From a virus: a stretch of DNA of 64,000 bases. Below, one piece after another: positions 4,530-52,957 of the stretch. The stretch covers positions 1-64,000 of the IMG/VR virus record IMGVR_UViG_3300028394_000057; one strand, given 5' to 3'. The position numbers and the translations under genes are program-made. The notes beneath the pieces are model-generated. The model was not told the DNA's origin and searched no databases. It saw only the letters and a list, made by a program, of their open reading frames with translations. Within the stretch, counting starts at the first letter, position 1. Each line of letters starts with the position of its first letter.

Positions 4530-7475
4530 ATGGCTATTAGTTCAAATAAATATATTCAAAAAATATCTTCTCAACATCCAACTGCCTTATGGTCGTTAGA
4601 TGATGAAGCATATTATGTTAAATTAATGTCGGATAGCGGAAGAGACTTAATAAATTGGACAAATGTTAACGCCGATAGTGTTACTAATATAGTTCCAGAA
4701 AACATAATTTTACCACGCAAAGATAGACCTTGCACAGAAATTGTTGGGTTAGAAATTGGTGGGGAAAATATTTATGGAAGCGTGTATCTTATAAGTGATG
4801 AAACTTTTACCTCGCAATCAGGCTCTTTTGATATTTCTTTTAATGTATATTCATATGGAAGCGATATACGTTATGCAAGGGTTGGTTATCAAATAGGAAC
4901 AACTAAATCAATTACAGGAGTTGGAAAGAGGACCACTCAAAACAGTCAAGTAAAATATTTTACAAGCAGTCCCCATGGTTTTACTAATGGACAATTTGTT
5001 ACTGTTTCTGGTACTGTTCCAACAGGGGCAAATCCAGGTGCCTATGACCAGGATGGAATTGTAGAAGTAATTAGTTCAACAACTTTTTGTATAACTAGTG
5101 GACTTAACTTTAATGCTTCGATTGCAGCAAATGAGTCTGCAGGAGAAACGTTTGTTGGTCAGATGGCAGTTGCGTCAGATGTTCGGTTGGCTGGAGAACA
5201 AAATAAATGGCTTTTTTTATCGGGACAATTTACTAGAGCAGTTTCAGGTGCAAAACTAAGATTAAAAATCTTTTATGACGGTGATTATGAAAAAACATTT
5301 TTAGTTAATGGAATAGATGTAGGAGAAAACTCATTAAAATTTGTTGGTAAATCTTCTGGACAAACCCCAGTAGAACTACCATCCGACATTGCAACAGATG
5401 AAACTTATGGAATTCCTGCAGAAAACTTTTTATCAAATTCCAACAAGGGTTATTATATTGTAAAAGACAACATACTTTGTACAGAAAATTCTTCAATTCC
5501 AATGGTTTATGGTTCTTCAAACACAACAGTCTTGTTCACAAACAACAATGCCCCATCATTAATTTTTCCTGGATTTGGATTTCTTAATGATTCTGGAATA
5601 AATAAAACATACAATTTTGAAACTTTTATTAGAATAAACGGAAATACAACAAGTCCAAAAAGAATTTTAGGACCTCTACAATCAGATGATGGGGTTTATG
5701 TGGATGGTTCTTTTATTGGTTTAAAAATAAATAATTTATATAAAACTGTTTATGTTGGAGAATGGTTTAAACCAATGCTATTAAATATTCAATACACAAA
5801 AAATAACATAGAACTTTTTATAAATGCAGAAAAACTTATAAACATAAATACTGCAAATGAAAGTATTTCTTTTCCAGAAAAAATTGCTACTACTGGGACA
5901 TATATTGACAAAGACCAGGATTGGATTGGTTTTTATTATTATGATGAATTTAATTCAATAGAGGTTGATACAGTTGCAATATATTGCTATGTTGTAAATG
6001 AATCAATATTAAAACAAAGACTTTTATATGCACAAGCAGTAAAAACATCTATTTTAGAAAATCAGGCTATTCAGAATAATGGAGAATTTTTTCATTTTCA
6101 GTATCCGTCATCTAACTATAGCAAGAATTACAATTATCCAACCTTTTCTAAATGGGAAAATGCTAGAATATTAGAAAATATAACAATAAAAGATAATGCA
6201 TTGTGTACTTTAGAATATGAATTGCCATCAATAAATTTAGGAACAAAAACACAAAATGAATGGCTGTCTGACCAGTATGAAATACAAAGTGAGGCAACAA
6301 ATTTTATGAGTTTAAAACCAGATTCATCCTATGACGATATTTATGGATACATATATTTTGATAATACAAATATTTTATCAGAGCCTATTTCATCAATATA
6401 TGCTGTTATAAAAAAACCAGCATCATCGGGCACCGAACAAAGACTTTTAACTATATACAATAATTATTCAAAAAATTATTTTAAAATTTGCTTAATTGGC
6501 TCAACTCTTTCATATGTTTTAAATTACAATGGAGTAGACACACAAATCTACTCAACGTCAAGTTCAATAATAAATAATAAAATTGCAATAGGAATTAATT
6601 TAGATATTATTAAAAATTCAACAAATTATGAATTATTATCATTTTTTAATGATAACAATTTGGTAATTTATGTTGGAGGAATGTTAGGAACAGAATATAC
6701 CTTTGACGGAAAAATCTATAAATTTGGAATATGTAATTCTAGAAATTCTTCAAATATTATTGCAAATTTTAATGAAAATGGAATAATGATACCAGCATCA
6801 TCCTTAGAAGATAATGTAGCAACATATACATTGTTTGTTGAAGAATTGTTTGATAATTTATTTTTAGATATTAAAACAAAATCATATTGGGAATCTTCAG
6901 TTTCTTTATTAAATTTATCTTATTTAAACTCGGATACACCAGATTTGAAATTTTTTCAACTAAACATAGATTATCCAGAAAATGTAAACATTGTTGATGG
7001 AGAATATGATACAACAAATGAATTAATTAAATCATATATAAGTTTTCAAGAAAACTCATCAGGTTTATCCGAATCAATTTTTTCTTCAACAGTACCACTT
7101 ACAAAAAATAAAATAATTGATGCAAAATTAAATTGGGCAAATAAAAAATATGAATTTATTGACCATACATTAGTTTACTCACCATCAGACATAGATATAA
7201 CTGATTACAGTGTTGTAATGCATTTAGAATTTGTTTCTAATGTTTATACAAAACCAATTAAATTAAAATATTTAGAGTTGGCATCAAAAACAACTGAAAG
7301 CAATAATGTTTCTACAATTACAACAACATCTGGAGCACCAGTTGAGCATTACTCTCTTGATGAAAATCAATTATTTGATTATCAAAATGATTCTGGTATT
7401 TTAATAACAAAAGAATCAACTTCATATTTAAATTTAAACAATAAAAGCGGCATTAGAATGGTTGGTTTAGAATAA
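4530..7475 (+). CDS. Large virion structural/minor tail protein (beta-rich, probable lectin-like domains)
   Basis: 981 aa; N-terminal HPTALWSLDD motif; beta-strand-rich composition; lies upstream of portal. Confidence 0.55.
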   Translation: MAISSNKYIQKISSQHPTALWSLDDEAYYVKLMSDSGRDLINWTNVNADSVTNIVPENIILPRKDRPCTEIVGLEIGGENIYGSVYLISDETFTSQSGSFDISFNVYSYGSDIRYARVGYQIGTTKSITGVGKRTTQNSQVKYFTSSPHGFTNGQFVTVSGTVPTGANPGAYDQDGIVEVISSTTFCITSGLNFNASIAANESAGETFVGQMAVASDVRLAGEQNKWLFLSGQFTRAVSGAKLRLKIFYDGDYEKTFLVNGIDVGENSLKFVGKSSGQTPVELPSDIATDETYGIPAENFLSNSNKGYYIVKDNILCTENSSIPMVYGSSNTTVLFTNNNAPSLIFPGFGFLNDSGINKTYNFETFIRINGNTTSPKRILGPLQSDDGVYVDGSFIGLKINNLYKTVYVGEWFKPMLLNIQYTKNNIELFINAEKLININTANESISFPEKIATTGTYIDKDQDWIGFYYYDEFNSIEVDTVAIYCYVVNESILKQRLLYAQAVKTSILENQAIQNNGEFFHFQYPSSNYSKNYNYPTFSKWENARILENITIKDNALCTLEYELPSINLGTKTQNEWLSDQYEIQSEATNFMSLKPDSSYDDIYGYIYFDNTNILSEPISSIYAVIKKPASSGTEQRLLTIYNNYSKNYFKICLIGSTLSYVLNYNGVDTQIYSTSSSIINNKIAIGINLDIIKNSTNYELLSFFNDNNLVIYVGGMLGTEYTFDGKIYKFGICNSRNSSNIIANFNENGIMIPASSLEDNVATYTLFVEELFDNLFLDIKTKSYWESSVSLLNLSYLNSDTPDLKFFQLNIDYPENVNIVDGEYDTTNELIKSYISFQENSSGLSESIFSSTVPLTKNKIIDAKLNWANKKYEFIDHTLVYSPSDIDITDYSVVMHLEFVSNVYTKPIKLKYLELASKTTESNNVSTITTTSGAPVEHYSLDENQLFDYQNDSGILITKESTSYLNLNNKSGIRMVGLE

Positions 7476-16822: not shown

Positions 16823-17539
16823 ATGCCTACTAATATATATGATACAAAATACATTTACCTTATTGATGGAACAGAGTTAGAGGTTAGTCCATTAAAGATT
16901 AAATATTTAAAAGAATTTATGGAAGTATTTGAACCAATAAAAAATACTAAAAATGATGATGAGTCTATTAAAATACTTATTCATTGTATGAAAATAGCGA
17001 TGAAACAATATTATCCTAAAATTAAAACAATTGAAGATGTTGAAGATAGTATGGATTTGCCAACAATTTATAAAGTTTTAGAAATTTCTGCTGGAATTAA
17101 AATGGGTCAGCCTACAGATAGTAGTATAGACAATAGTGTACAACAAATACCAGTAGCACCAACAGATAATGGTTCTTGGAAAACACTAGATTTGGCTAAA
17201 CTAGAAGCAGAAATTTTTGTTCTTGGAATATGGAAAAACTTTGATGAACTAGAATCAAACATATGTATGCCAGAATTAATGGCTATTCTTGAATCAAAAA
17301 GAGAATTGGATTATAATGAAAAGAAATTTCTTGCCGCTATGCAAGGTGTAGACCTTGATGAAGCCAGCGGTAAAAAAGAAGAAGACCCTTGGGAAGCAAT
17401 GAAAGCCAGGGTCGCAGCAAAAACTAGCGGTGTTGGTAATGGAGACCCTAATGATATAACAGCATTACAAGGAATAAAAGCACAGCAAACAGGATTTGGT
17501 ATAGGTATGGGTCTTGATTATGAAGTTGTTTCAAAATAG
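16823..17539 (+). CDS. Tail assembly chaperone, long (GT-like) form
   Basis: Between major tail and TMP genes; N-terminal ~95 aa homologous to the next ORF. Confidence 0.7.
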   Translation: MPTNIYDTKYIYLIDGTELEVSPLKIKYLKEFMEVFEPIKNTKNDDESIKILIHCMKIAMKQYYPKIKTIEDVEDSMDLPTIYKVLEISAGIKMGQPTDSSIDNSVQQIPVAPTDNGSWKTLDLAKLEAEIFVLGIWKNFDELESNICMPELMAILESKRELDYNEKKFLAAMQGVDLDEASGKKEEDPWEAMKARVAAKTSGVGNGDPNDITALQGIKAQQTGFGIGMGLDYEVVSK

Positions 17540-17581: not shown

Positions 17582-17905
17582 ATGTCTACAACAATTAACG
17601 AAGCAAGAACTGTAGAACTACTGGACGGAACAAGTATTACTGTTCGTCCACTTAAAATCTCTCTTCTACGCCCTTTTATGACAAAGTTTGAGGGTATTGC
17701 AGAAGTAGCAGATAGCAATGATAAATCAATGAGTTTGCTCATTGAATGTGTGCAGATTGCTTTTCAGCAATTTGCTCCAGAACTAGCCAAGGATGCAAAG
17801 GCTCTAGAAGAACTTTTGGACCTACCAACCGTATACAAGATTGTTGAAGAAGCATCTGGTATTAAACTTAGTGAAGCCTCACTAATGGGTGGTTTAATCG
17901 GCTAA
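17582..17905 (+). CDS. Tail assembly chaperone, short (G-like) form
   Basis: Directly upstream of TMP; strong SD AAGGAGG; paralog of the previous gene's N-terminus. Confidence 0.75.
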   Translation: MSTTINEARTVELLDGTSITVRPLKISLLRPFMTKFEGIAEVADSNDKSMSLLIECVQIAFQQFAPELAKDAKALEELLDLPTVYKIVEEASGIKLSEASLMGGLIG

Positions 17906-17923: not shown

Positions 17924-20900
17924 ATGGCTGATATCAATTCCAATATAAAAGTTAATATAGATACGTCAGACGCTCTGGCACAACTAAAACTTTTACAGCA
18001 ACAGATATCAGCCTTTCAGCAAGCAATGCGAAATGCAGGAGCACAAAATGCTGCCGCTGCTGCTGCAATGCAGCAAAATCTTATAACCTCAATTAATGCT
18101 ACTGGAAAATTCAGAGCAAACGTTCAAACAATAAAAACAAGTGCAGAATCATTTACAGAATCTTTAGAAAAGAATAAATTTTCTATTGGAGAATACTTTA
18201 GATATGCTGGCGGTGCTTCAAAAACTTTCGGTAAATTGTTTAAATCAGAGTATGCAACTATAACTCAGGTAGCAAAAGAACGAGTAAAAGAACTACAAAC
18301 TCAATATATCAAACTTGGTCGTGATGCCACTGGCGCTATGAAGGCTATTGCTGTTAAGCCGCTATCACTTGACATGAATAATCTTGCAACTAAAACACAG
18401 TTAGCAGCACAAAAACAACAATTGTTTAATCAGTTAATGAAACAAGGTTCTACAAGTCTTCTAAATTTTGGTAAAAATACTCAATGGGCTGGTCGCCAAC
18501 TTATGGTTGGTTTTACAATTCCATTAACTATGTTAGGTTCTGCCGCTGCTAAAGCATACATGCAAATTGAAGCAGCATCTGTAAAATTTAGACGTGTTTA
18601 TGGTGACATGAATACAACTACAGAAGAAGCCAATAAGATGGTTAGGTCTGTACAAGGTCTTGCAAATGAATTTACAAAGTATGGTGTTGCAGTTGCAGAT
18701 ACTATGGATATGGCTGCCCAGGCAGCCGCTATGGGTAAAACTGGTGCAGACCTTATTGCACAAATAAATAATGCTGCAAAACTTTCTATCTTAGGTGGGG
18801 TAGACCAAACAAAGGCTTTAGAAACTACTATTAGTCTTACAAATGCTTTTGGAGTTGCAGCAGAAGATTTAGGTAAAAATATTGATTTCCTAAACGCAGT
18901 GGAAAACCAAACTACACTTAGTATCGATGATTTAACTACTGCTATTCCAAAGGCTGCCCCTGTTGTTAAACAACTTGGTGGAGATGTAAAAGATTTGGCA
19001 TTCTTTATGACAGCAATGAAAGAAGGTGGAATTAACGCATCTGAAGGTGCTAACGCAATTAAATCTGGTTTGGCATCATTAATTAATCCATCAGAAAAAG
19101 CATCAAAATTTCTTCAAGGATTTGGCATTAATGTTAAGGGTATTGTTGAAGCAGATAAAGGTAATCTAAAGAAAACAGTTGTTGATTTTGCTAAAGCACT
19201 AGACACTCTTGACCCACTAAACCGTGCTCGTGCTATTGAACAAATGTTTGGAAAGTTCCAATTTTCCAGACTTTCAACATTGTTCCAAAACGTAATTGCC
19301 GAAGGTAGCCAAGCATCTCAAGTAGCAGAATTATCTAAAAACTCAGCAGAAGAATTAGCAATCTTATCAGAACGAGAAATGAAAAAGATTTCAGATTCTC
19401 CAATGTTTAAGTTTCAAAAATCTATTCAAGACATGCAAGCCAAACTTGCACCTGTTGGCGAAGCATTCTTAAAGGCTGTCACACCAATCATTGAATTTGT
19501 TAGCAAAATACTAGATGGTTTTAATAGTATGGGCGAAGGTGCCAAAAACTTTGTTTCAATGCTAGTGTTGGCTGTTGCTGGTATCGGTCCTGTATTGCTT
19601 ATGACATTTGGTTTGATTGCAAACGGTGTAGCAAATATTATGAAACTATTTACAAATATGAAGGGTTTCATTAATAAGACAACAAAGCCATCAGATATTC
19701 TTGGTGAACAAACTAGTTATATGACTACAGAACAGTTGAAGGGTGCAACAGTTGCAGCATCTCTTGACCAAGCACATGCCAAACTTCGTCAAACATTTAC
19801 CTCTGAAAAAGCAGCATTAGATGAATTAACTAGGTCATATAGACAAGCAGTAGAAGCCCAACAGCAATATTCTGGTGTTCCAGGAATACCAACAGGAAAT
19901 CCAAATGCTGTTCCTAAAAGATATGCTAATGGTGTTTCTATGGTTCCTGGTCCAAGAGGTGCAGGAGATATTATTCCAGCCTTGCTGTCTCCAGGTGAAG
20001 CAGTTATACCAGCCAAACATGCACAAAAATATGCTCCAGTAATTGCTGGTATGGTTTCTGGTAATCTTCCAGGATTTGAAACTGGAACTACTGGTGTTGG
20101 TATTCGTCAAAGCACAATTGGACCACTTACTCAAAAACAAACCGAAGGAATTTTAAGAACTGGTAAAACACTTAAAGAAATTAGCGATGAAGTTTATGCT
20201 GGACCATATGGAGCAGTTCCTCCAGAACACTATGTAAGACAGGTTGAGCCAACTAGTGGGCACTCATTCCCTGCATTCCAAGTTGGTGGAATTTATGAAA
20301 AGGCTGATGGTAGTCAAGTATTTGTAAAACCACAAATGGATTTAACCTCAGCACTAGCAGAAGTTCGTGGTACTCAAATTGCAAGAGACGCACATCAATT
20401 AACAACACCTATGCAAAAAATTGTTACAATGATGGACCCAACAGACCCAGAAGGTATGCGTAAATTTATTGCTTTAGAATCACCACTAAATGAACAAATT
20501 GCTAAAATTTCTACATCATTTACAAAGGGACAATATTTTAAACAACTAGTTGCTTCTTTACTTCGTGGAGATAAAGACCTTGGTATTGGAAATCTTGGCG
20601 GAGATATCCTTGCTGATGTTGGTACTGCAGGTGTATTCCAAACAGCATCTGGTAAGCGTAAACTTGGCGGTAGCATTAATTCAATGGAAGAGCAAGCCAT
20701 CATTAATTTGCTTGGTGTAAAGGGCGGTGCTAAGAGATTCTTTGCTGAATCAACCTCAGATATTGCTAAGAACATGTCATCTGCTGAATATGATGCAACA
20801 ATGAAAGCAGAAATTCAAGCAGTAATGCCAAGGCTTCAAGCCACCATTGCTGGTTTTGGAAATCTTTCACCAGAAGAAAAAGCAGCATACGCAAATATGC

Positions 20901-23900
20901 AGCAAAGACTTCAAGCAGGTATGAGTGTTGATTGGGGTAAATATCAGGTTATGCATTCTGCTGTTCCTTCAAAAAAGTATGCTATGGGTGGTATGGTTCC
21001 AGGATATTTTGATGGAAAAGATAATGTTAAAAAAGAATCTGATTATACAACAGAAGAACTTTATAAACTATTAAACATTCAAGAAACACATGCTTTTGGT
21101 GAAATGAATATTAAAGACCCAAGAGTTCAAGCACAACTGCAAAAACAATTTAAAGAATCTACTCCAGAAGACTTTAATAAATTTAAAGTTCTTAGTAATC
21201 TTACTATTAGTTTGCCAGGTAAATTAAATCAATTAATTAAAGAAACTAGTAACGGTGTAAGCGGAACAATGTTTGGTCAAGCCTACAATGCTTTGCGTGG
21301 TAAATTAAGTAAAACTGCAAAAATGTCTGGTATTAAAAATCTATCAGATTCTCAATCTCTTGAAGATATTATTGGAACAAAATTTGCAGGAGAACCATTA
21401 ATTAAAGATTCAATATTTGCAAGAATAGTAGAGCAAAATATTAACGAACAAACTGCAAACACCTCTAGTATTGGTGCTGCAGCAAACTTAATTTGGGAAA
21501 GAACAAAACAAGTTGGTACAGTTAGACCTAAACGTGATGGTTTAGATGCACCTAGATGGAACGATTTGATTCGAACAATGTTGCAAAATGATGAACTTGT
21601 TTTGGTTCCAGGAAGTGAAAAAGGATTTCCAGTTGCAAATACTCCATTTGGTGGTCGTTTTGGAAGAATCAAAGCAGATGGTATTGGCTCAAGTAAGACT
21701 GCTGAAGGACGTGCTCTTCGTAAACTAGCACAAGATGCAGCAAATGCATGGGCTAGGTCAGGCAATAAAACAACACCTTTGCCTAGTGTACAAGATAATA
21801 ATGGAAATATAGTTCCATTAACTTGGAGAGATAATAGTGCAAAACCAGGAAGTTTTTCAACAGATGATTTTGCTGCCTATGACGATACAAGTAAAAAATA
21901 TGCATCAGACCTATCTTTTGCCCCTGGAGGATTTGATGTTCTTAAAAATCTTAAATTCTTTGCTGATGGTGGAATGGTTCCAGGTTATTCTGGAGGAACA
22001 GATAATATAGTTAAAAAACTATCTCTAAAAGATTTAGATTTTGCTGGAATGAAAAAGGATAAACTTGGTGCAGTGCCAGGTGGCTACAGAATAATTGATG
22101 GTAAAAAATATTATGTAAAAAATACTAAATCATCTACAGACGCATCAATAGAACTAATTATGTCTGAATTAAACCAGGCTATGCAAAATCCTGGTGCCCA
22201 TAAAATGAACATGTTTGGCGAAGGATTGGTTGGGAGTAAGTTTGTTCCAGGTTTAAAGAACACAATGGATTCCACTATGACTAATTGGTTGCAATCACAA
22301 CCAAACAAATTCTCAGCAGCAGAAACACTTATGGCGGCTGCTAAAGATTTCATTACAAAAGATGCTCCATTTAACGCAATGATTGGAAATGACGATGGTC
22401 ACACAAATAATATACTTTTTAATCCAAAAACTCGCAAATTTGTAAACCTTGACCTTGGGGTTAATTCAGCAAAAGATAAAGGTAAGTCAACAAAATTTAA
22501 TGAAATGGCACAAATTGGAATTCAAAACTTTAAATCTAGAATTATGATGGCTATTAGAACTGTTCTCTCTCCCAAAAAAGCCGATGTTCTTTCAAAAAAA
22601 TATGGAATTGATTTAAATGCATATTCTAAGGGGGATAAATTTTCAAATGAATATGACACATCTCCAGAAATTAGCAAAATGGCTAAACTGCTTGGTTTTG
22701 ATTTATCTAAACCAATATCCGAAAACCCAATTGATTTAAGAACCAACCCTTTTGTTTTGTCACTACTTGCTAAAAATCCAGAACTTGCAGAAATTTTAAA
22801 ACTACAAGTAACAAGTGGTGGAGTAAACCCACAAAGTGCTCTTTCACAAATCTTTAAAACTTTACAAAGTGCAAGCAAAAAACCAATTCTGAAATTTGCT
22901 GATGGTGTATTTTCAGTTCCAGGACCAAAGGGTGCTGGCGATGTAGTTCCTGCTATGCTATCTCCTGGTGAGGCTGTTATTCCTGCTGACCGTGCTGCTC
23001 AACACCGTGGACTAATTAAGGGAATGATTGCTGGTAATTTGCCAGGGTATGCAAAGGGAACTATAATTCCAGGATACGTTCATGGCAAAGATGAAGTTAA
23101 AAGAATACCAGGAATGCCAGCATCCGCAGTTACCGTTACTTCTTTTGATGCTGATAATCAGGCTATGCTTGCAGAACAATCAAAAGTTGTTGCTTTAGAA
23201 GAAGCCTTAGTTGCAAAAAAGACAGATTTAACTCGTTTAACTCGTGAACAAATTGAAGAGCAGATGGCAGTAGAGGATGACATCTACAGACAACTATTAG
23301 AAAAACAAGAAGAACTAAAGATGAAACATGTTCTTACTGAAGATGAAAGAAAGTTGCTAGAGTCAAACAAGCAAATTATGCTTAGAAAAGAAGAAGCCTT
23401 TAAACTTGAAAAGAATGTAATAGAAAAAGAAAAAAGAGGACTGTTTACAAGAAATGCTACGACTGGAAAAGTTCAAGGTCTGATGTATGGTCTTTCTGGA
23501 GCAGCAGGTCTTGCATCAACTGTGCCAGGTGCTGTAGGAGAAAGTGCACAGCAAATGCTTCCAGTTATTGGTGCTGCCACTGCCGCTATGTCTGTTATTC
23601 CTGGCTACGCTGGCATGATTGTTGGAGCAGGTGCAGCATTAGTTACAGCCTACATGCAAGTACAAGAGAGGTTAAACAAGATTAGAGATGAGGCATTGGC
23701 TCTGGGAACTGCTATGGGTTCATCTACAAAGTCTATTGATAAATTTGCGGAATTTGCCAAAACTGTTACTGGTAGTCAGACAATGGATAAACGTAGAGAA
23801 ACTAGTGCTGGCACTTTCTTTAATGTTGTTCAGGGTAAAACAACTTTTGGCGAAGCATATATGCAAGGAGATGCTGGAAAAGCCTTAGTAAAATCAGTTG

Positions 23901-26900
23901 GAGAATCAATTAAGGGTGGAGGATTAACTCAAGCAAAATCTATGATTGTAAATCAATTATCTACTGCTATTGCCAGCGGAGCAATGTCTCCTGCTCAGGC
24001 TAGAAGTATTGCATCAAATCTAGGTGCTCAACTAGGAGACATGTCTTTAGGTATTGAGGTTGCAGGAAAAATAACTGACCTTGTAGGTCCAAAAGGAGAA
24101 GACTTAAAGAAAGAACCTTTGCAAATAAGACTGCGTCTTGTTGCTGACTCTATGGAGCAGTTTAAGAAGCAAGCAGAAATTTCTAATGCTAACGCAACTG
24201 ATGCCGCAAAGAATGCAGGAACATCTGGTGCAGGTATTGGTATAGGTGCTGGTGCTGGTTTAGCGGCTGGCTTTGGTGTTGCTGGTGCAGGAAGCATAGT
24301 AGCAAATCTTGGCTCTACAGGAATCTTGGCAGGAATGGCTCTTGGAACTACAGCAGGTTCTGTAGTTCCAGTTATTGGAACTATTGCTGGAGCACTTGTA
24401 GGATTCTCGATTGCTGCAGTTCAACTGCAAGGAGATATTGCAAAAAATGCAGGGTATTTACAAGCAAGTCTAGGAAGTGCCTTATCTGTTCAACAACAAA
24501 TGGTTGACTCTTTAACAGTAGATTATGAAAAGAGAATAGCGTCAGCAAAGGCTGCTGGGGATACAGCAGAAGCCACTAGACTACAAAATCAGTACCTTGC
24601 TGACCAAGCAGAGTTATTAGACTTTAATAAAAAACAAACTCAAGAAATGTATGGTATTTTAAATGAACAAAGTACTGGCTTAGGGTTTATGTTAAATGCA
24701 CAAGTTGCAAACTTGGATACAGCAAGAGAAGGTTTGAAGAAAGCATTTGAAGGAACTGGGCAAGAGGTTCAGGCTAAACTTGCACAAGAACAGATTGATG
24801 CTATGTCAGGTTCTCTTGCACAAAAGACTATGCTTATGTCAGCAGTTGGTCAAAAACAAATAGGGCTTAACCAAATTGGAGTTGCACAAAAAGCGTTTGG
24901 TTCTGACCAAGCAGGAGCAGATACTCTGCAAACGCTTATGGAAAATAGCCCAACCGAACTAAACAGAACTCTTGGTCTAGCAGGAAACATGGCTGAAACA
25001 GAGCAAAAGAAATTTGTAATAGACATGAGTCTAAAAGACCCTATTCAAGCAAAGATAATGAATGATGCTGTAGAACTAGCACAAAAAACAACTGGCGTTT
25101 TCTTTGGAGAAAAGAAAACAGCGGAAGCAATTATGAGATTTGCTGTAGAAAATCCAGAAAAGATGCTAGAGTTTCAAGAAAACGTAACAGATTTAAAAAA
25201 TATACAAGGAACAACTTTTGATATTACAGTTGCACAAAAAATTCTTGGTCCAGATTTAGCAAAGGCTTTGGGAGAAAAAAGCGTTGGAGCATATTTTAAA
25301 AAGTATAACAAGCAAAACAAGATTGTGTTCTTATCTGAATTCCAGCAGGTAATGACAATGCTTGCAAAGGGTGATGAAGACATGCTTGCATCTTGGAGAT
25401 TGTGGAATGCTGAAAATGGTGGCAAAAAAACAATGGCTGATTACGCTGCCTACCAGTCTGACAGAACAGTTACTAGTCAGGGAGTCGACAATACAATAGT
25501 TCCTGGCACTGGTACCACTGGCGGTAGTGGTAATGGTCCAGAGAGTTCTTGGCTAGACCCTTTTGTTAAAAATATAAGGGATGCTGGAACATCGACTCAA
25601 AAATTAACAACTGGTTTTAATGATTCAGCAGCAGCACTTACAAAATTTGCGAATAAAGTACCAAATTTTATTGGTTTATTTACACAACTTAAGAAAGCAG
25701 GGGCTAGTGCAAAAATTATCGAGGCTGCACTTGGCGGTGATGAAGCCACAACAGCAAAATTGATTGATACAAAAACTGGACAATTAAAAGCAGGGGCTAA
25801 AAAAATTCTTGATGGAATTAGCAAAGCCATTAGAGAACAAAAAATGGTAGACTGGATGCTCCTTACAGGGGCAGGAAAAAGACAAAAGTATAACGATATG
25901 TATCAAGCAAACCTGGATGTTCTTAAAATTGATGAAGATAAAATTAATAAAACTTATGATGATAGAATTAAAGCATTAGATGAAATAAATACTCTTCAAG
26001 AAAAAAATACTGCTCAACAACAAAGCACTTTAACTATTGCAGATGCCTTATCTAAAGGAGACATTGCAGGGGCTGCTCGTGCCGCATTAGAAAAAACAAA
26101 ACAAGACACAGCATTTGCTATTGAACAACAAAAGATAAATCTAGAAAATGCTAGACAAACAGAACTTGGAAAACTTACAACAAATATTAATGGTGTTCAA
26201 ATGACAAGAGTAGAAATAGAAGAAAAGATTAGAATTAATGCAGAAAAAATTACTAAAAGTAAAGCAGAAGAATTAGAATCTGAGATTCGTATTGGTAAAT
26301 TAGCAGAAAAACGATTTAAAGCATACAAACCAGTTCCAGGTGTGTCCACTGGTGGCGGTGGTGGTGGCGGTGGCGGCAAAGCAGATACAAAACCCACACC
26401 AGATACAAAACCCACACCAGATACTAAGCCCACACCAGATACAAAACCCACACTAGATAATAAGCCCACACCAGATACAAAACCTAGTGGCGTAGTTGGT
26501 GACATTACAAGTTCTCCACAAGGCAAAGCATTTACAGCAGCACTCAAAGGTGCTCAGGATGTTACACCTGGTGCTTTAAAGGCTGCTCAGGATTATGCTA
26601 CTGCTAAGAAAAATGCAGGGGCATCAATGAGCGATGCTGCTGCAGCAAAGAAATTTGGTGGAAAAAATACTGCAGCATTTAAAACATGGAAAGCAAATCA
26701 AACAAAACTTGCTAAAGCATTAACAGCAGCACAGGATTACGGTATTGTCGATAGTTCTGGTAACGTTCTTACAGCAGACCAAGTTACTAATGCAAGTATT
26801 TATCAAAGATATGCAATGCTTAGTTCAAAGAGTGGTCAAGCAGATGCAGCAGAATCTTTAAAAGGTATTCCAGCAGAAATTGCTTCTAGGGCAAAATTGA

Positions 26901-27682
26901 TTAAAAATTCAAATAAAGATTTTGCAGCAGACAAAACAAAACTTGATGGAATGAAGAAAACATTTGAAAAAGCAGGTGGTTTATTGTATATGCTTCCAGG
27001 ATACTATCAAACATGGTTAAATACCTCAGATGCTTTAAGACCTACAACTCCTTTTGGAAAACTTATTGCAAAAGGTGCTAAACCAGAAGAACTTATAAAT
27101 CAAGCAACAAAAATGGCAACGAAGTTTGGTGAAATAGATAATTATAGAAAAGCACTTACAAGTGCTGGGTATACAGACTCGTTGCTTTTTCAGGCTAAAC
27201 TATTTGATAGTAATTATGGTCGTGATGGACAAACTTTAAAGCAAACATCCGATTTTGCATCTGGTCAAATGTTTAAGCCACATAAAGCCTATACAGGAAC
27301 AAATATTGGATATGGTAAAAACCAAATACTTCCTGACGCAGAAAACATGCTTAGATTTGGTAATCAATATTACGCTATGGGTGGTATGGTTTATGCAAAC
27401 AAGGGGCTTAAGGTTGCAGCAAGTAAGTATGCTCTTGGAACTGATACTATTCCTGCTATGCTTACCCCAGGAGAATTTGTAATTAAAAAATCAGCAGTGG
27501 ATTCAATTGGATTAAATAAACTTAATTCTATAAACTCTGGAACATTGTCATCTAATTCAGTGTATAATTATAGTATCAATGTTAATGTTAAATCAGATGC
27601 AAATGTAAACCAAATTGCAGATACTGTTATTAGACAAATTAAACAAATTGATTCACAAAGATTAAGGAGTGTCAGTATATAA
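17924..27682 (+). CDS. Tape measure protein with inserted kinase-like cargo domains
   Basis: 3252 aa, Ala/Gly/Gln-rich and helical; TP901-type core (AVENQT..., EGANAIKSGL); C-terminal GTDTIPAMLTPGEFVI motif; synteny. Confidence 0.92.
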   Translation: MADINSNIKVNIDTSDALAQLKLLQQQISAFQQAMRNAGAQNAAAAAAMQQNLITSINATGKFRANVQTIKTSAESFTESLEKNKFSIGEYFRYAGGASKTFGKLFKSEYATITQVAKERVKELQTQYIKLGRDATGAMKAIAVKPLSLDMNNLATKTQLAAQKQQLFNQLMKQGSTSLLNFGKNTQWAGRQLMVGFTIPLTMLGSAAAKAYMQIEAASVKFRRVYGDMNTTTEEANKMVRSVQGLANEFTKYGVAVADTMDMAAQAAAMGKTGADLIAQINNAAKLSILGGVDQTKALETTISLTNAFGVAAEDLGKNIDFLNAVENQTTLSIDDLTTAIPKAAPVVKQLGGDVKDLAFFMTAMKEGGINASEGANAIKSGLASLINPSEKASKFLQGFGINVKGIVEADKGNLKKTVVDFAKALDTLDPLNRARAIEQMFGKFQFSRLSTLFQNVIAEGSQASQVAELSKNSAEELAILSEREMKKISDSPMFKFQKSIQDMQAKLAPVGEAFLKAVTPIIEFVSKILDGFNSMGEGAKNFVSMLVLAVAGIGPVLLMTFGLIANGVANIMKLFTNMKGFINKTTKPSDILGEQTSYMTTEQLKGATVAASLDQAHAKLRQTFTSEKAALDELTRSYRQAVEAQQQYSGVPGIPTGNPNAVPKRYANGVSMVPGPRGAGDIIPALLSPGEAVIPAKHAQKYAPVIAGMVSGNLPGFETGTTGVGIRQSTIGPLTQKQTEGILRTGKTLKEISDEVYAGPYGAVPPEHYVRQVEPTSGHSFPAFQVGGIYEKADGSQVFVKPQMDLTSALAEVRGTQIARDAHQLTTPMQKIVTMMDPTDPEGMRKFIALESPLNEQIAKISTSFTKGQYFKQLVASLLRGDKDLGIGNLGGDILADVGTAGVFQTASGKRKLGGSINSMEEQAIINLLGVKGGAKRFFAESTSDIAKNMSSAEYDATMKAEIQAVMPRLQATIAGFGNLSPEEKAAYANMQQRLQAGMSVDWGKYQVMHSAVPSKKYAMGGMVPGYFDGKDNVKKESDYTTEELYKLLNIQETHAFGEMNIKDPRVQAQLQKQFKESTPEDFNKFKVLSNLTISLPGKLNQLIKETSNGVSGTMFGQAYNALRGKLSKTAKMSGIKNLSDSQSLEDIIGTKFAGEPLIKDSIFARIVEQNINEQTANTSSIGAAANLIWERTKQVGTVRPKRDGLDAPRWNDLIRTMLQNDELVLVPGSEKGFPVANTPFGGRFGRIKADGIGSSKTAEGRALRKLAQDAANAWARSGNKTTPLPSVQDNNGNIVPLTWRDNSAKPGSFSTDDFAAYDDTSKKYASDLSFAPGGFDVLKNLKFFADGGMVPGYSGGTDNIVKKLSLKDLDFAGMKKDKLGAVPGGYRIIDGKKYYVKNTKSSTDASIELIMSELNQAMQNPGAHKMNMFGEGLVGSKFVPGLKNTMDSTMTNWLQSQPNKFSAAETLMAAAKDFITKDAPFNAMIGNDDGHTNNILFNPKTRKFVNLDLGVNSAKDKGKSTKFNEMAQIGIQNFKSRIMMAIRTVLSPKKADVLSKKYGIDLNAYSKGDKFSNEYDTSPEISKMAKLLGFDLSKPISENPIDLRTNPFVLSLLAKNPELAEILKLQVTSGGVNPQSALSQIFKTLQSASKKPILKFADGVFSVPGPKGAGDVVPAMLSPGEAVIPADRAAQHRGLIKGMIAGNLPGYAKGTIIPGYVHGKDEVKRIPGMPASAVTVTSFDADNQAMLAEQSKVVALEEALVAKKTDLTRLTREQIEEQMAVEDDIYRQLLEKQEELKMKHVLTEDERKLLESNKQIMLRKEEAFKLEKNVIEKEKRGLFTRNATTGKVQGLMYGLSGAAGLASTVPGAVGESAQQMLPVIGAATAAMSVIPGYAGMIVGAGAALVTAYMQVQERLNKIRDEALALGTAMGSSTKSIDKFAEFAKTVTGSQTMDKRRETSAGTFFNVVQGKTTFGEAYMQGDAGKALVKSVGESIKGGGLTQAKSMIVNQLSTAIASGAMSPAQARSIASNLGAQLGDMSLGIEVAGKITDLVGPKGEDLKKEPLQIRLRLVADSMEQFKKQAEISNANATDAAKNAGTSGAGIGIGAGAGLAAGFGVAGAGSIVANLGSTGILAGMALGTTAGSVVPVIGTIAGALVGFSIAAVQLQGDIAKNAGYLQASLGSALSVQQQMVDSLTVDYEKRIASAKAAGDTAEATRLQNQYLADQAELLDFNKKQTQEMYGILNEQSTGLGFMLNAQVANLDTAREGLKKAFEGTGQEVQAKLAQEQIDAMSGSLAQKTMLMSAVGQKQIGLNQIGVAQKAFGSDQAGADTLQTLMENSPTELNRTLGLAGNMAETEQKKFVIDMSLKDPIQAKIMNDAVELAQKTTGVFFGEKKTAEAIMRFAVENPEKMLEFQENVTDLKNIQGTTFDITVAQKILGPDLAKALGEKSVGAYFKKYNKQNKIVFLSEFQQVMTMLAKGDEDMLASWRLWNAENGGKKTMADYAAYQSDRTVTSQGVDNTIVPGTGTTGGSGNGPESSWLDPFVKNIRDAGTSTQKLTTGFNDSAAALTKFANKVPNFIGLFTQLKKAGASAKIIEAALGGDEATTAKLIDTKTGQLKAGAKKILDGISKAIREQKMVDWMLLTGAGKRQKYNDMYQANLDVLKIDEDKINKTYDDRIKALDEINTLQEKNTAQQQSTLTIADALSKGDIAGAARAALEKTKQDTAFAIEQQKINLENARQTELGKLTTNINGVQMTRVEIEEKIRINAEKITKSKAEELESEIRIGKLAEKRFKAYKPVPGVSTGGGGGGGGGKADTKPTPDTKPTPDTKPTPDTKPTLDNKPTPDTKPSGVVGDITSSPQGKAFTAALKGAQDVTPGALKAAQDYATAKKNAGASMSDAAAAKKFGGKNTAAFKTWKANQTKLAKALTAAQDYGIVDSSGNVLTADQVTNASIYQRYAMLSSKSGQADAAESLKGIPAEIASRAKLIKNSNKDFAADKTKLDGMKKTFEKAGGLLYMLPGYYQTWLNTSDALRPTTPFGKLIAKGAKPEELINQATKMATKFGEIDNYRKALTSAGYTDSLLFQAKLFDSNYGRDGQTLKQTSDFASGQMFKPHKAYTGTNIGYGKNQILPDAENMLRFGNQYYAMGGMVYANKGLKVAASKYALGTDTIPAMLTPGEFVIKKSAVDSIGLNKLNSINSGTLSSNSVYNYSINVNVKSDANVNQIADTVIRQIKQIDSQRLRSVSI
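26383..26484 (+). repeat. 18-bp tandem repeat (~5.5 copies) encoding PDTKPT, preceded by poly-Gly
   Basis: agatacaaaacccacacc repeated. Confidence 0.9.
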
Positions 27683-52742: not shown

Positions 52743-52815
52743 TGGGCATTAACTCAGTTGGCAGAGTGTTCGACTGTTAATCGAAATGTCCCTGGTTCGA
52801 GCCCAGGATGCCCAG
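52743..52815 (+). tRNA. tRNA-Asn (GTT)
   Basis: Cloverleaf: TGGGCAT/ATGCCCA acceptor, TTCGA-CTGTTAA-TCGAA anticodon arm, CCTGG-TTCGAGC-CCAGG T arm; no encoded CCA. Confidence 0.93.
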
Positions 52816-52819
52816 CAAA

Positions 52820-52891
52820 GCCACCTTAACTCAGCGGTAGAGTGCCATACTTGTAATATGGAGGTCAACAGTTCAAATCTGTTAGGTGGCT
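52820..52891 (+). tRNA. tRNA-Thr (TGT)
   Basis: Cloverleaf: GCCACCT/AGGTGGC acceptor, CCATA-CTTGTAA-TATGG anticodon arm, AACAG-TTCAAAT-CTGTT T arm. Confidence 0.92.
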
Positions 52892-52957
52892 CTGATGAAT
52901 GCTATAATAGTATTACTATGAGCAATCGTAGAATACATCTTGAAAGGAAGTATAATT

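Follow-up and report, generated by a model that had tools for sequence, protein, structure and literature searches.

The window analysed here is a 64,000-nucleotide stretch (positions 1 to 64,000) of the 91,335-bp IMG/VR virus record IMGVR_UViG_3300028394_000057. On its forward strand lies a giant tape measure protein (TMP) gene, and within this gene a cassette, here called K, that is predicted to fold as a kinase. The first-pass annotation, made from the letters alone, had reported a HipA/PI3K-like kinase domain with intact catalytic motifs at this place. The four motifs are all present, in frame and in the order reported, in a single open reading frame (ORF), and the following features of the carrier and of K were delineated (aa, amino acids of the TMP; AF2, AlphaFold2).

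17924..27682, + strand: ORF of the giant TMP (P0001, 3252 aa), one uninterrupted frame.
21977..22897, + strand: kinase cassette K, aa 1352-1658, delimited by the AF2 model, fold searches, cassette replacement in the related locus L009 and contig ends.
22079-22807, + strand: confident kinase-fold core of K, aa 1386-1628, from the AF2 model.
22079-22120, + strand: GGYRIIDGKKYYVK, aa 1386-1399, in-frame motif with the putative Gly loop and Lys.
22079..22120, + strand: N-lobe hairpin, with G1386 and G1393 invariant and K1399 (YYVK) as the candidate for anchoring ATP, from model strands and conservation.
22142-22156, + strand: ASIEL, aa 1407-1411, in-frame motif with the putative helix Glu.
22151..22153, + strand: E1410, helix-C Glu candidate, invariant in 18/18 homologs and in the helix at model residues 55-70.
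22382-22417, + strand: IGNDDGHTNNIL, aa 1487-1498, in-frame motif of the putative catalytic loop.
22388..22459, + strand: putative catalytic loop N1489-x-D1491-x-H1493-x-x-N1496 and Mg-binding loop N1508-x-D1510-x-G1512, from conservation and alignments.
22445-22459, + strand: NLDLG, aa 1508-1512, in-frame motif with the putative Mg-binding Asp.

The carrier carries the marks of a TMP. PF10145 (PhageMin_Tail) matched aa 247-443 (E 2e-24; 87 bits against a cut-off of 33.2), and PHROG tape-measure families covered aa 1-700, with a best E of 3.4e-100. On the 5' side lie genes for a portal protein, a head maturation protease, a major-head-like protein and an Ig-domain tail protein, together with two ORFs in the chaperone position; minor tail proteins follow on the 3' side. 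The large size, the hydrophobic segments and the gene order (chaperone genes, TMP, distal tail) are likewise those of a TMP. Thus, the gene belongs to a siphovirus-type tail module, and with TMP family matches in the same ORF and tail-module neighbors, the proposal that the kinase domain lies inside a TMP is borne out.

To assess conservation, 18 homologous domains were aligned locally; their identity to the window copy was 22-38%, apart from one at 73%. N1489, D1491, H1493, N1496, D1510, G1512 and E1410 were invariant in all 18, and K1399 was kept in 17, in agreement with the earlier description of the catalytic motifs as intact. Between K copies from four loci, dN/dS was 0.39-0.61. An environmental variant of K (98% identical) differed by 10 nonsynonymous and 6 synonymous changes, none of the 16 at a catalytic residue. 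Because the catalytic residues are strictly conserved while the overall scaffold drifts, the pattern argues for an enzyme over a spacer, and we judge K to be catalytically competent, as predicted from its sequence. A chance match to the motifs was rejected because of their invariance across homologs together with the predicted kinase fold.

K might still be an inert kinase-fold module (a pseudokinase) that serves for binding or refolding, or as a length spacer tuning the tail. It is established that tail length scales with TMP length, and cassette number and order vary among the relatives; selection on K is only moderate overall, and no curated family threshold is reached, all of which would suit such a module. 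However, the ATP-binding, catalytic and Mg-binding residues are invariant at about 30% identity, which a spacer or pseudokinase would not need, and a second kinase-like domain of the same TMP (X1, below) likewise keeps its equivalents of these residues. We regard an inert K as very unlikely.

An AF2 model of aa 1350-1640, built on an 11-row alignment, reached a pLDDT of 71.8 and a pTM of 0.71. Its elements run in the order two strands, long helix, two strands, helices, two short strands. Strands at model residues 38-42 and 45-51 are followed by the helix; K1399 closes the second strand, and E1410 lies within the long helix. The NxDxHxxN loop comes after the long helix and DxG after the short strand pair. 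When the model was compared with 48,161 PDB chains by VIA-align, the top 50 rows were all kinase-fold proteins, with RIO2 and RIO1 in first place (Z 10.8; root mean square deviation 3.5-3.6 over 154-159 residues), followed by NleH1 (Z 9.5) and by CtkA and HipA (Z 8.7 each, over nearly the whole K domain); 106 chains had Z>=8. The best Z for models with no true match is typically 7-8. The score of the K model exceeds this background, and the stronger argument is that all matches are kinases. Foldseek against the PDB placed PI3K p110 chains at the top (E 6.6e-4), with HipA among the matches, and a second-look structure search concurred on a kinase fold. Structure prediction, which had been suggested as a check, therefore returned kinases. 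The predicted bilobal order of elements and the conserved Lys, Glu, catalytic Asp/Asn and metal Asp are those of the PKL superfamily, and the core of K is predicted to be an atypical protein-kinase-like domain of the PI3K/PI4K/PIKK/HipA type.

Relatives of K are few. A HMMER scan of 1.84 billion representative proteins yielded only 12, almost all in proteins of 1900-4000 aa; one more (71% identity) came from a 90%-cluster database, and pattern scans of IMG/VR and JGI metagenomes gave six loci with a K domain. No match was obtained by tblastn with K, X1 and the long linker (described below) against 50,697 GenBank phage records. One candidate relative, P0011, was discarded as a repetitive low-complexity match, and the designed helical-repeat proteins that came first when the family (A4) profile was compared with the PDB were set aside as a repeat artefact. 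The best natural PDB match of the K family hidden Markov model was to the catalytic and Mg-binding loops of Tel1/ATM (E 0.017 to 0.26). Here, the stretch GN-D-x-H-x-x-N-I-L...N-L-D-L-G aligned column by column with Tel1 GLGDRHGHNIL...HIDLG, so the loop and spacing of PF00454 recur in K.

Below the gathering cut-off of 27.1 bits, three relatives of K matched PF00454 at 21.1, 17.0 and 16.5 bits (best E 3.2e-4, at profile positions about 140-188), and the window copy gave no match at E<=10. HipA_C (PF07804) and HipA_2 (PF20613) matched neither the window copy nor six relatives at E<=10. Thus, of the profile searches against HipA_C and PI3_PI4_kinase that the first-pass annotation had proposed, the one with PF00454 gave sub-threshold matches in relatives, and the window copy was matched by neither profile. 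With hhalign, K and Escherichia coli HipA aligned in the catalytic loop alone (HipA 297-315, 19 columns, E 0.12). The NCBIfam family YjjJ scored E 0.11 in one relative of K, and the nearest named ESM Atlas clusters included HipA_2 (0.94) and PI3_PI4_kinase (0.93).

The D-x-H-x-x-N spacing of the K catalytic loop is that of the PI3K/PI4K/PIKK/HipA branch and differs from the HxD of aminoglycoside and choline kinases and the HRD of Hanks kinases. Together with the DxHxxN...DxG spacing, the Tel1/ATM loop alignment and the sub-threshold relatives, this upholds the HipA/CtkA/PI3-4-kinase-like motif order recognized earlier. With the PI3K/PI4K/PIKK kinases (PF00454; Tel1/ATM, p110), K shares the predicted bilobal fold, the G-x-x-D-x-H-x-x-N-I-[LM] loop and the [IL]-D-x-G Mg loop. 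The spacing of the two loops is nearly the same, with 14 residues from Asn to Asp in K against 13 in p110alpha. K is much smaller than these kinases (about 245 aa), lacks helical, FAT and C2 accessory domains, and lies inside a phage tail protein. HipA, HipA_2, HipT and CtkA belong to the same kinase-like branch, and D-G-H-x-x-N of K is nearly identical to TDGHAKN of E. coli HipA. However, the Mg loop of K is DxG as in PI3K, not of the HipA form, and K has no antitoxin partner and is not a stand-alone toxin. A HipA toxin-antitoxin module was rejected, as K is internal to a 3252-aa TMP with tail-gene neighbors and no HipA_N match. We file K as a domain predicted to work like the PI3K/HipA branch and not as a formal member of either family, because the window copy meets no curated threshold.

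K is fenced by repeated linkers, which were detected by phmmer and regular expressions; a self-BLAST of the TMP at default settings gave no internal repeats.

19919..20086, + strand: long linker copy 1, aa 666-721 (YANG..VPGP.GAGD..PALLSPGEAVIPA...GNLPGF), sequence repeat.
20972..21022, + strand: short linker, aa 1017-1033, YAMGGMVPGYFDG, sequence repeat.
21953..22003, + strand: short linker, aa 1344-1360, FADGGMVPGYSGGT, left boundary of K, where homology with L009 stops.
22892..23092, + strand: long linker copy 2, aa 1657-1723, right boundary of K, where homology with L009 resumes.
27365..27499, + strand: shortened linker-type motif at the C terminus, aa 3148-3192 (YAMGGMV...GTDTIPAMLTPGEFV), sequence repeat.

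The long linker (~60 aa) has the form VPGP.GAGD..PA.L.PGE.V and occurs 1-5 times per related TMP; the short linkers have the form [FY]A.GG.VPGY. In every homolog except the divergent fragment P0012, a long linker stands about 10-40 residues after K. The start of K ranges from residue 50 to 3631 in related TMPs with a near-identical 640-aa N terminus. In the closest relative, L009, the flanks are 85-90% identical and an unrelated 315-aa insert replaces K between the same linkers. Ten related X1-carrying records were found to lack K, in a search that detected all four known carriers used as the positive control. Thus, K is an exchangeable cassette bounded by repeated linkers. The L009 insert itself (4867-5811) has no Pfam family, is split by an internal GGIIPGY-type linker and ends in a hydrophobic stretch.

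Freshwater metagenomes contain the cassette-bearing stretch. In a second freshwater sample, one contig was identical across 21818-23085, and an assembly chimera was excluded because this independent contig spans both K-flank junctions. A 2022 sample of a different study yielded a 966-nt contig that corresponds exactly to 21977-22942 and has its ends at the two cassette boundaries; in a further contig, the sequence joined to the upstream side of the right linker at 22895 was a different one. The right boundary is also marked by a loose end at 22895 in sequencing run X4. No RNA run was among the sequencing runs listed as holding the stretch, and parts of it had no read cover in runs X3 and X4; neither result has any bearing on expression.

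The motif G.D..PA.L.PGE.V occurs at 19919-20086, 22892-23092 and 27365-27499, the last copy being the TMP's own C-terminal motif. Because of this, the internal linkers look like duplicated TMP C termini that now act as module boundaries.

Two further cassettes precede K in the cargo region.

20144..20983, + strand: second kinase-like domain X1, aa 741-1020, with candidate residues K802, E813, D885, N890 and D898, from the AF2 model, VIA-align and motifs.
21014..21952, + strand: cassette X2, aa 1031-1343, between X1 and K, homologous in relatives.

X1 shows its motifs in kinase order (GG.Y...VFVKP, ALAE, DKDL...N, AD[VA]G), which in the window copy read GGIY..VFVKP, ALAE, DKDL...N and ADVG. They are invariant in divergent copies, including the equivalents of Lys, Glu, DxxxxN and DxG. 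The AF2 model of X1 (16 sequences) had a pLDDT of 74.5 and a pTM of 0.75, with the candidate catalytic loop (model residues 143-179) modeled at low confidence. The top 50 VIA-align rows were all kinase-fold proteins, led by the atypical kinases CotH (Z 11.2), PI4KIIalpha (9.9), HipA (8.9) and MavQ (8.9), then CtkA, HipT and Fam20, and the best Foldseek match was CtkA (E 6e-3). X1 was found in 17 IMG/VR contigs at 66-89% identity and is much commoner than K among the relatives. In an hhalign comparison, K and X1 aligned in their N-lobes alone (E 0.05), and shared ancestry of the two is not demonstrable from this. Both families are sequence orphans and add a new branch to the PI3K/HipA-like kinases. 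Neither X1 (aa 741-1020) nor the exchangeable nature of K had been noticed in the first-pass annotation.

X2 had no match in Pfam, PHROG or NCBIfam, and its recognition in the ESM Atlas was low and uninformative. It is 77-85% identical in L009 and L010 and 25-43% identical in other relatives. Three relatives, P0014 (aa 1376-1505), P0002 (aa 372-537) and L010 (about 6240-6640), carry a cassette of the HAD class-B acid-phosphatase type (PF03767; E 1e-13 to 1e-17) that the window TMP lacks. In P0014 and P0002 it stands directly N-terminal to K, and the L010 copy has a faint match to the LNS2 lipid-phosphatase domain.

As to the host, the DnaE-type polymerase is 55% identical to Streptomyces phage polymerases, and the TMP N terminus is closest to TMPs of actinophages (Streptomyces phages). 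With these two proteins nearest to those of actinophages and the samples coming from freshwater, a freshwater actinobacterial host is plausible for this uncultured phage, as suggested by its relatives.

These results bear on the possibility that K is a lipid or small-molecule kinase, which would act on a membrane lipid or envelope precursor and remodel the membrane at the entry site so that a channel can form or DNA can pass. If the host is actinobacterial, phosphatidylinositol or its mannosides would be candidate substrates. The DxHxxN...DxG signature and the sole Pfam matches, those of relatives, belong to the phosphoinositide-kinase family; the top Foldseek matches of K are PI3K, and the best matches of X1 include the lipid kinases PI4KIIalpha and MavQ. 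In addition, the HAD acid-phosphatase cassette adjoins K in P0014 and P0002, its L010 copy is faintly LNS2-like, and the kinase would be tethered beside membrane-inserting segments. Actinobacteria are known to contain phosphatidylinositol, and the DnaE and TMP N terminus are nearest those of Streptomyces phages. However, among the characterized bacterial kinases of this branch, all those with targets in their own cell (HipA, HipT) are protein Ser/Thr kinases, the loop after DxG is neither conserved nor basic across the K family, and VIA-align puts RIO and protein kinases over lipid kinases for K. Taken as the main role of K, this seems rather unlikely to us.

Our preferred reading, to which we give a probability of roughly 60%, is that K is an exchangeable TMP cargo, a kinase of the PI3K/HipA type that is delivered into the cell and phosphorylates host targets before phage gene expression. 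The fold, motif conservation, cassette architecture and TMP context are computational results, the fold being predicted; from them we infer the enzymatic activity of K, its ejection into the cell, its topology and its substrate. The first-pass annotation, which had proposed a virion-delivered kinase acting on host proteins or lipids on entry, is supported in its overall interpretation, with delivery from the virion and the host targets as its conjectural part. The proposed steps involve the following parts of the TMP outside the cargo region.

17924..19843, + strand: conserved N-terminal domain, aa 1-640, common to full-length K-carrying relatives.
19538-19651, + strand: hydrophobic segment within the N-terminal domain, aa 539-576, from hydropathy.
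23477..23656, + strand: hydrophobic segment, aa 1852-1911, from hydropathy and uncharged runs.
24215..24430, + strand: glycine-zipper-like hydrophobic segment, aa 2098-2169, from hydropathy.

Aa 1-640 matched nearly end to end in all full-length K-carrying relatives (E 1e-176 to 0), and the C-terminal region is kept in all relatives. During infection, TMPs leave the virion and get as far as the cytoplasmic or inner membrane, as established for T5 (Pb2), lambda (gpH) and HK97. In the proposed mechanism, the TMP would lie largely extended in the tail lumen and be expelled at host binding, and the cytoplasmic membrane would receive its segments aa 1852-1911 and 2098-2169. Permeation of membranes has been connected with the glycine zippers of TMPs and of the type VI secretion system effector Tde1 (PMC10240207). 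X1, X2 and K, which make up the cargo region (aa about 720-1720), would be threaded through and refold on the cytoplasmic side, where ATP is present. There, K1399 and E1410 would anchor ATP, D1491-x-H1493-x-x-N1496 would form the catalytic loop and D1510-x-Gly would bind Mg, and the refolded cargo would phosphorylate host targets ahead of any phage gene expression.

For the substrate, we lean slightly towards host proteins (Ser/Thr, by analogy with HipA, CtkA and T7 gp0.7), which are favored because of the HipA, CtkA and PIKK precedents. A membrane lipid or other small substrate is appreciably less probable; it is nevertheless a serious alternative because of the phosphoinositide-kinase signature, the HAD phosphatase beside K in relatives and a host that possibly contains phosphatidylinositol.

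Several points weigh against delivery of K as an active kinase. Pfam (E<=10), the PHROGs, NCBIfam and the PDB sequences held nothing relevant to the window copy, PF20613 and PF00454 had no match in any of the six frames of the whole phage genome, and the sequence links of K to PI3K and to HipA are individually weak. The AF2 model is only moderately confident, coming from a shallow 11-sequence alignment, and the geometry of the nucleotide pocket is likewise a prediction. Purifying selection on K is modest overall (omega about 0.4-0.6). The phage is uncultured, and an actinobacterial host is only suggested by the DnaE identity. A folded 30-kDa domain in three copies is too big for a tail lumen of roughly 4 nm, so delivery would require unfolding and refolding. 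In no phage is part of a TMP known to reach the ATP-containing cytoplasm. Finally, the TMP polyprotein might be processed at the linkers before assembly.

The last point leads to a different role, in which K would be an active kinase that works inside the cell making the phage, or on proteins of the phage itself, and not after ejection, for example phosphorylating the tail or TMP late in infection, or being cleaved from the TMP polyprotein. The repeated, conserved linkers could be processing sites, the size of the folded kinase relative to the lumen would cease to matter, and ATP is certainly present in the producer cell. However, no protease site or tail-associated protease was identified, late-acting enzymes need no fusion to a TMP, and the last linker, as the TMP's C-terminal motif, suggests docking or recombination over cleavage. 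Moreover, K is a swappable accessory cargo of a virion protein, as is typical of delivered effectors (PMC5512222, PMC13277306). A role in the producing cell appears improbable.

As reported previously, kinase domains occur in phage and plasmid polyvalent proteins, which are delivered with the virion and would modify host proteins on entry (Iyer et al. 2017, PMC5512222). Those kinases form a truncated Ser/Thr/Tyr-kinase clade with no C-lobe and are found on MuF- or portal-linked head proteins; tape measure proteins have 0 occurrences in that paper (PMC5512222). In the related TMPs described here, several cargo domains stand in shuffled order, and these may be delivered with the DNA as well. Like polyvalent proteins and a Gordonia phage protein described below (GodonK gp67), the window TMP combines an enzymatic domain with a very large multidomain virion-associated protein and cassette-like variability. 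In contrast, its carrier is a TMP, its kinase is PI3K/HipA-like, and the anchor domains that define polyvalent proteins (MuF, portal-linked and others) are absent. TMP-related modular, exchangeable effectors are also known in contractile injection systems, e.g., Sle1 (PMC13277306).

Tape measure proteins with embedded enzymes include T5 Pb2, with a peptidase, and the TM4 and staphylococcal TMPs, with muralytic motifs. With these and with Sle1, the K-carrying TMP would share a scaffold bearing an exchangeable module whose action on the target cell follows ejection. Known TMP modules are cell wall hydrolases, which act outside the cytoplasm and are independent of ATP. Modification of host proteins at the very start of infection has parallels in T7 gp0.7, a protein kinase that is made after entry and not packaged, and in T4 Alt, an injected ADP-ribosyltransferase that is pre-made and capsid-internal in the virion. 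K has no sequence relationship with either, and the chemistry of Alt is different. The literature that we searched describes no kinase in a tape measure protein. Enzymatic TMP domains and effector polyproteins were already known, and a TMP with a cassette for a PI3K/HipA-like kinase, and with two kinase folds altogether, is a new form of them.

That a TMP carries the fold of an ATP-dependent kinase implies access of some of this protein to the cytoplasmic side of the membrane. Host phosphorylation without phage gene expression would show such access, and K would then be a natural reporter for the fate and topology of the TMP. The preferred reading would also carry the concept of polyvalent proteins or effector polyproteins over from the head to the tape measure of the tail, and the swapping of cassettes at conserved linkers might be put to use for loading phage tails with custom cargo. 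As a long shot, the TMP may be a programmable injection polyprotein whose cassettes, fenced by recombinogenic linkers, are threaded into the host cytoplasm ahead of the DNA; they would include two different atypical kinases here and a HAD phosphatase in relatives, with K phosphorylating a host membrane lipid at the entry site, such as actinobacterial phosphatidylinositol or its mannosides. In that case, K would be the first lipid kinase of the phosphoinositide type to be delivered by a phage and would directly prove that TMP segments reach the cytoplasmic membrane face.

When K was compared with viral models by Foldseek, K-like domains were found in large virion-type phage proteins. One is gp67 of Gordonia phage GodonK (L027, NC_048176.1, 26522-30961), a 1479-aa protein that is annotated as hypothetical, lies directly after the portal gene and has no Pfam family. 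Residues 106-214 of gp67, in its N-terminal domain, aligned with the K family by hhalign (probability 77%, E 2e-5), with D-x-P instead of D-x-H. GodonK gp67 offers a cultured system for experiments.

Some minor features of the window were also recorded. At nt 26351-26443, the TMP gene encodes a nine-glycine run, a short spacer and then tandem KPTPDT repeats, which looks like a flexible, possibly length-variable spacer. Just 5' of the TMP, the adjacent ORFs 16823-17539 and 17582-17905 both match phrog_10504; the longer one stands first and has an extra C-terminal domain (phrog_10474), and the pair resembles G/GT chaperones, each with a gene of its own. A 981-aa ORF (4530-7475) that has no PHROG family lies in a markedly AT-rich stretch (GC 27-33% vs ~38% nearby), with a ribonucleotide reductase gene on one side and the portal region on the other. 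Two adjoining tRNA genes, Asn(GTT) and Thr(TGT), are located at 52743-52892.

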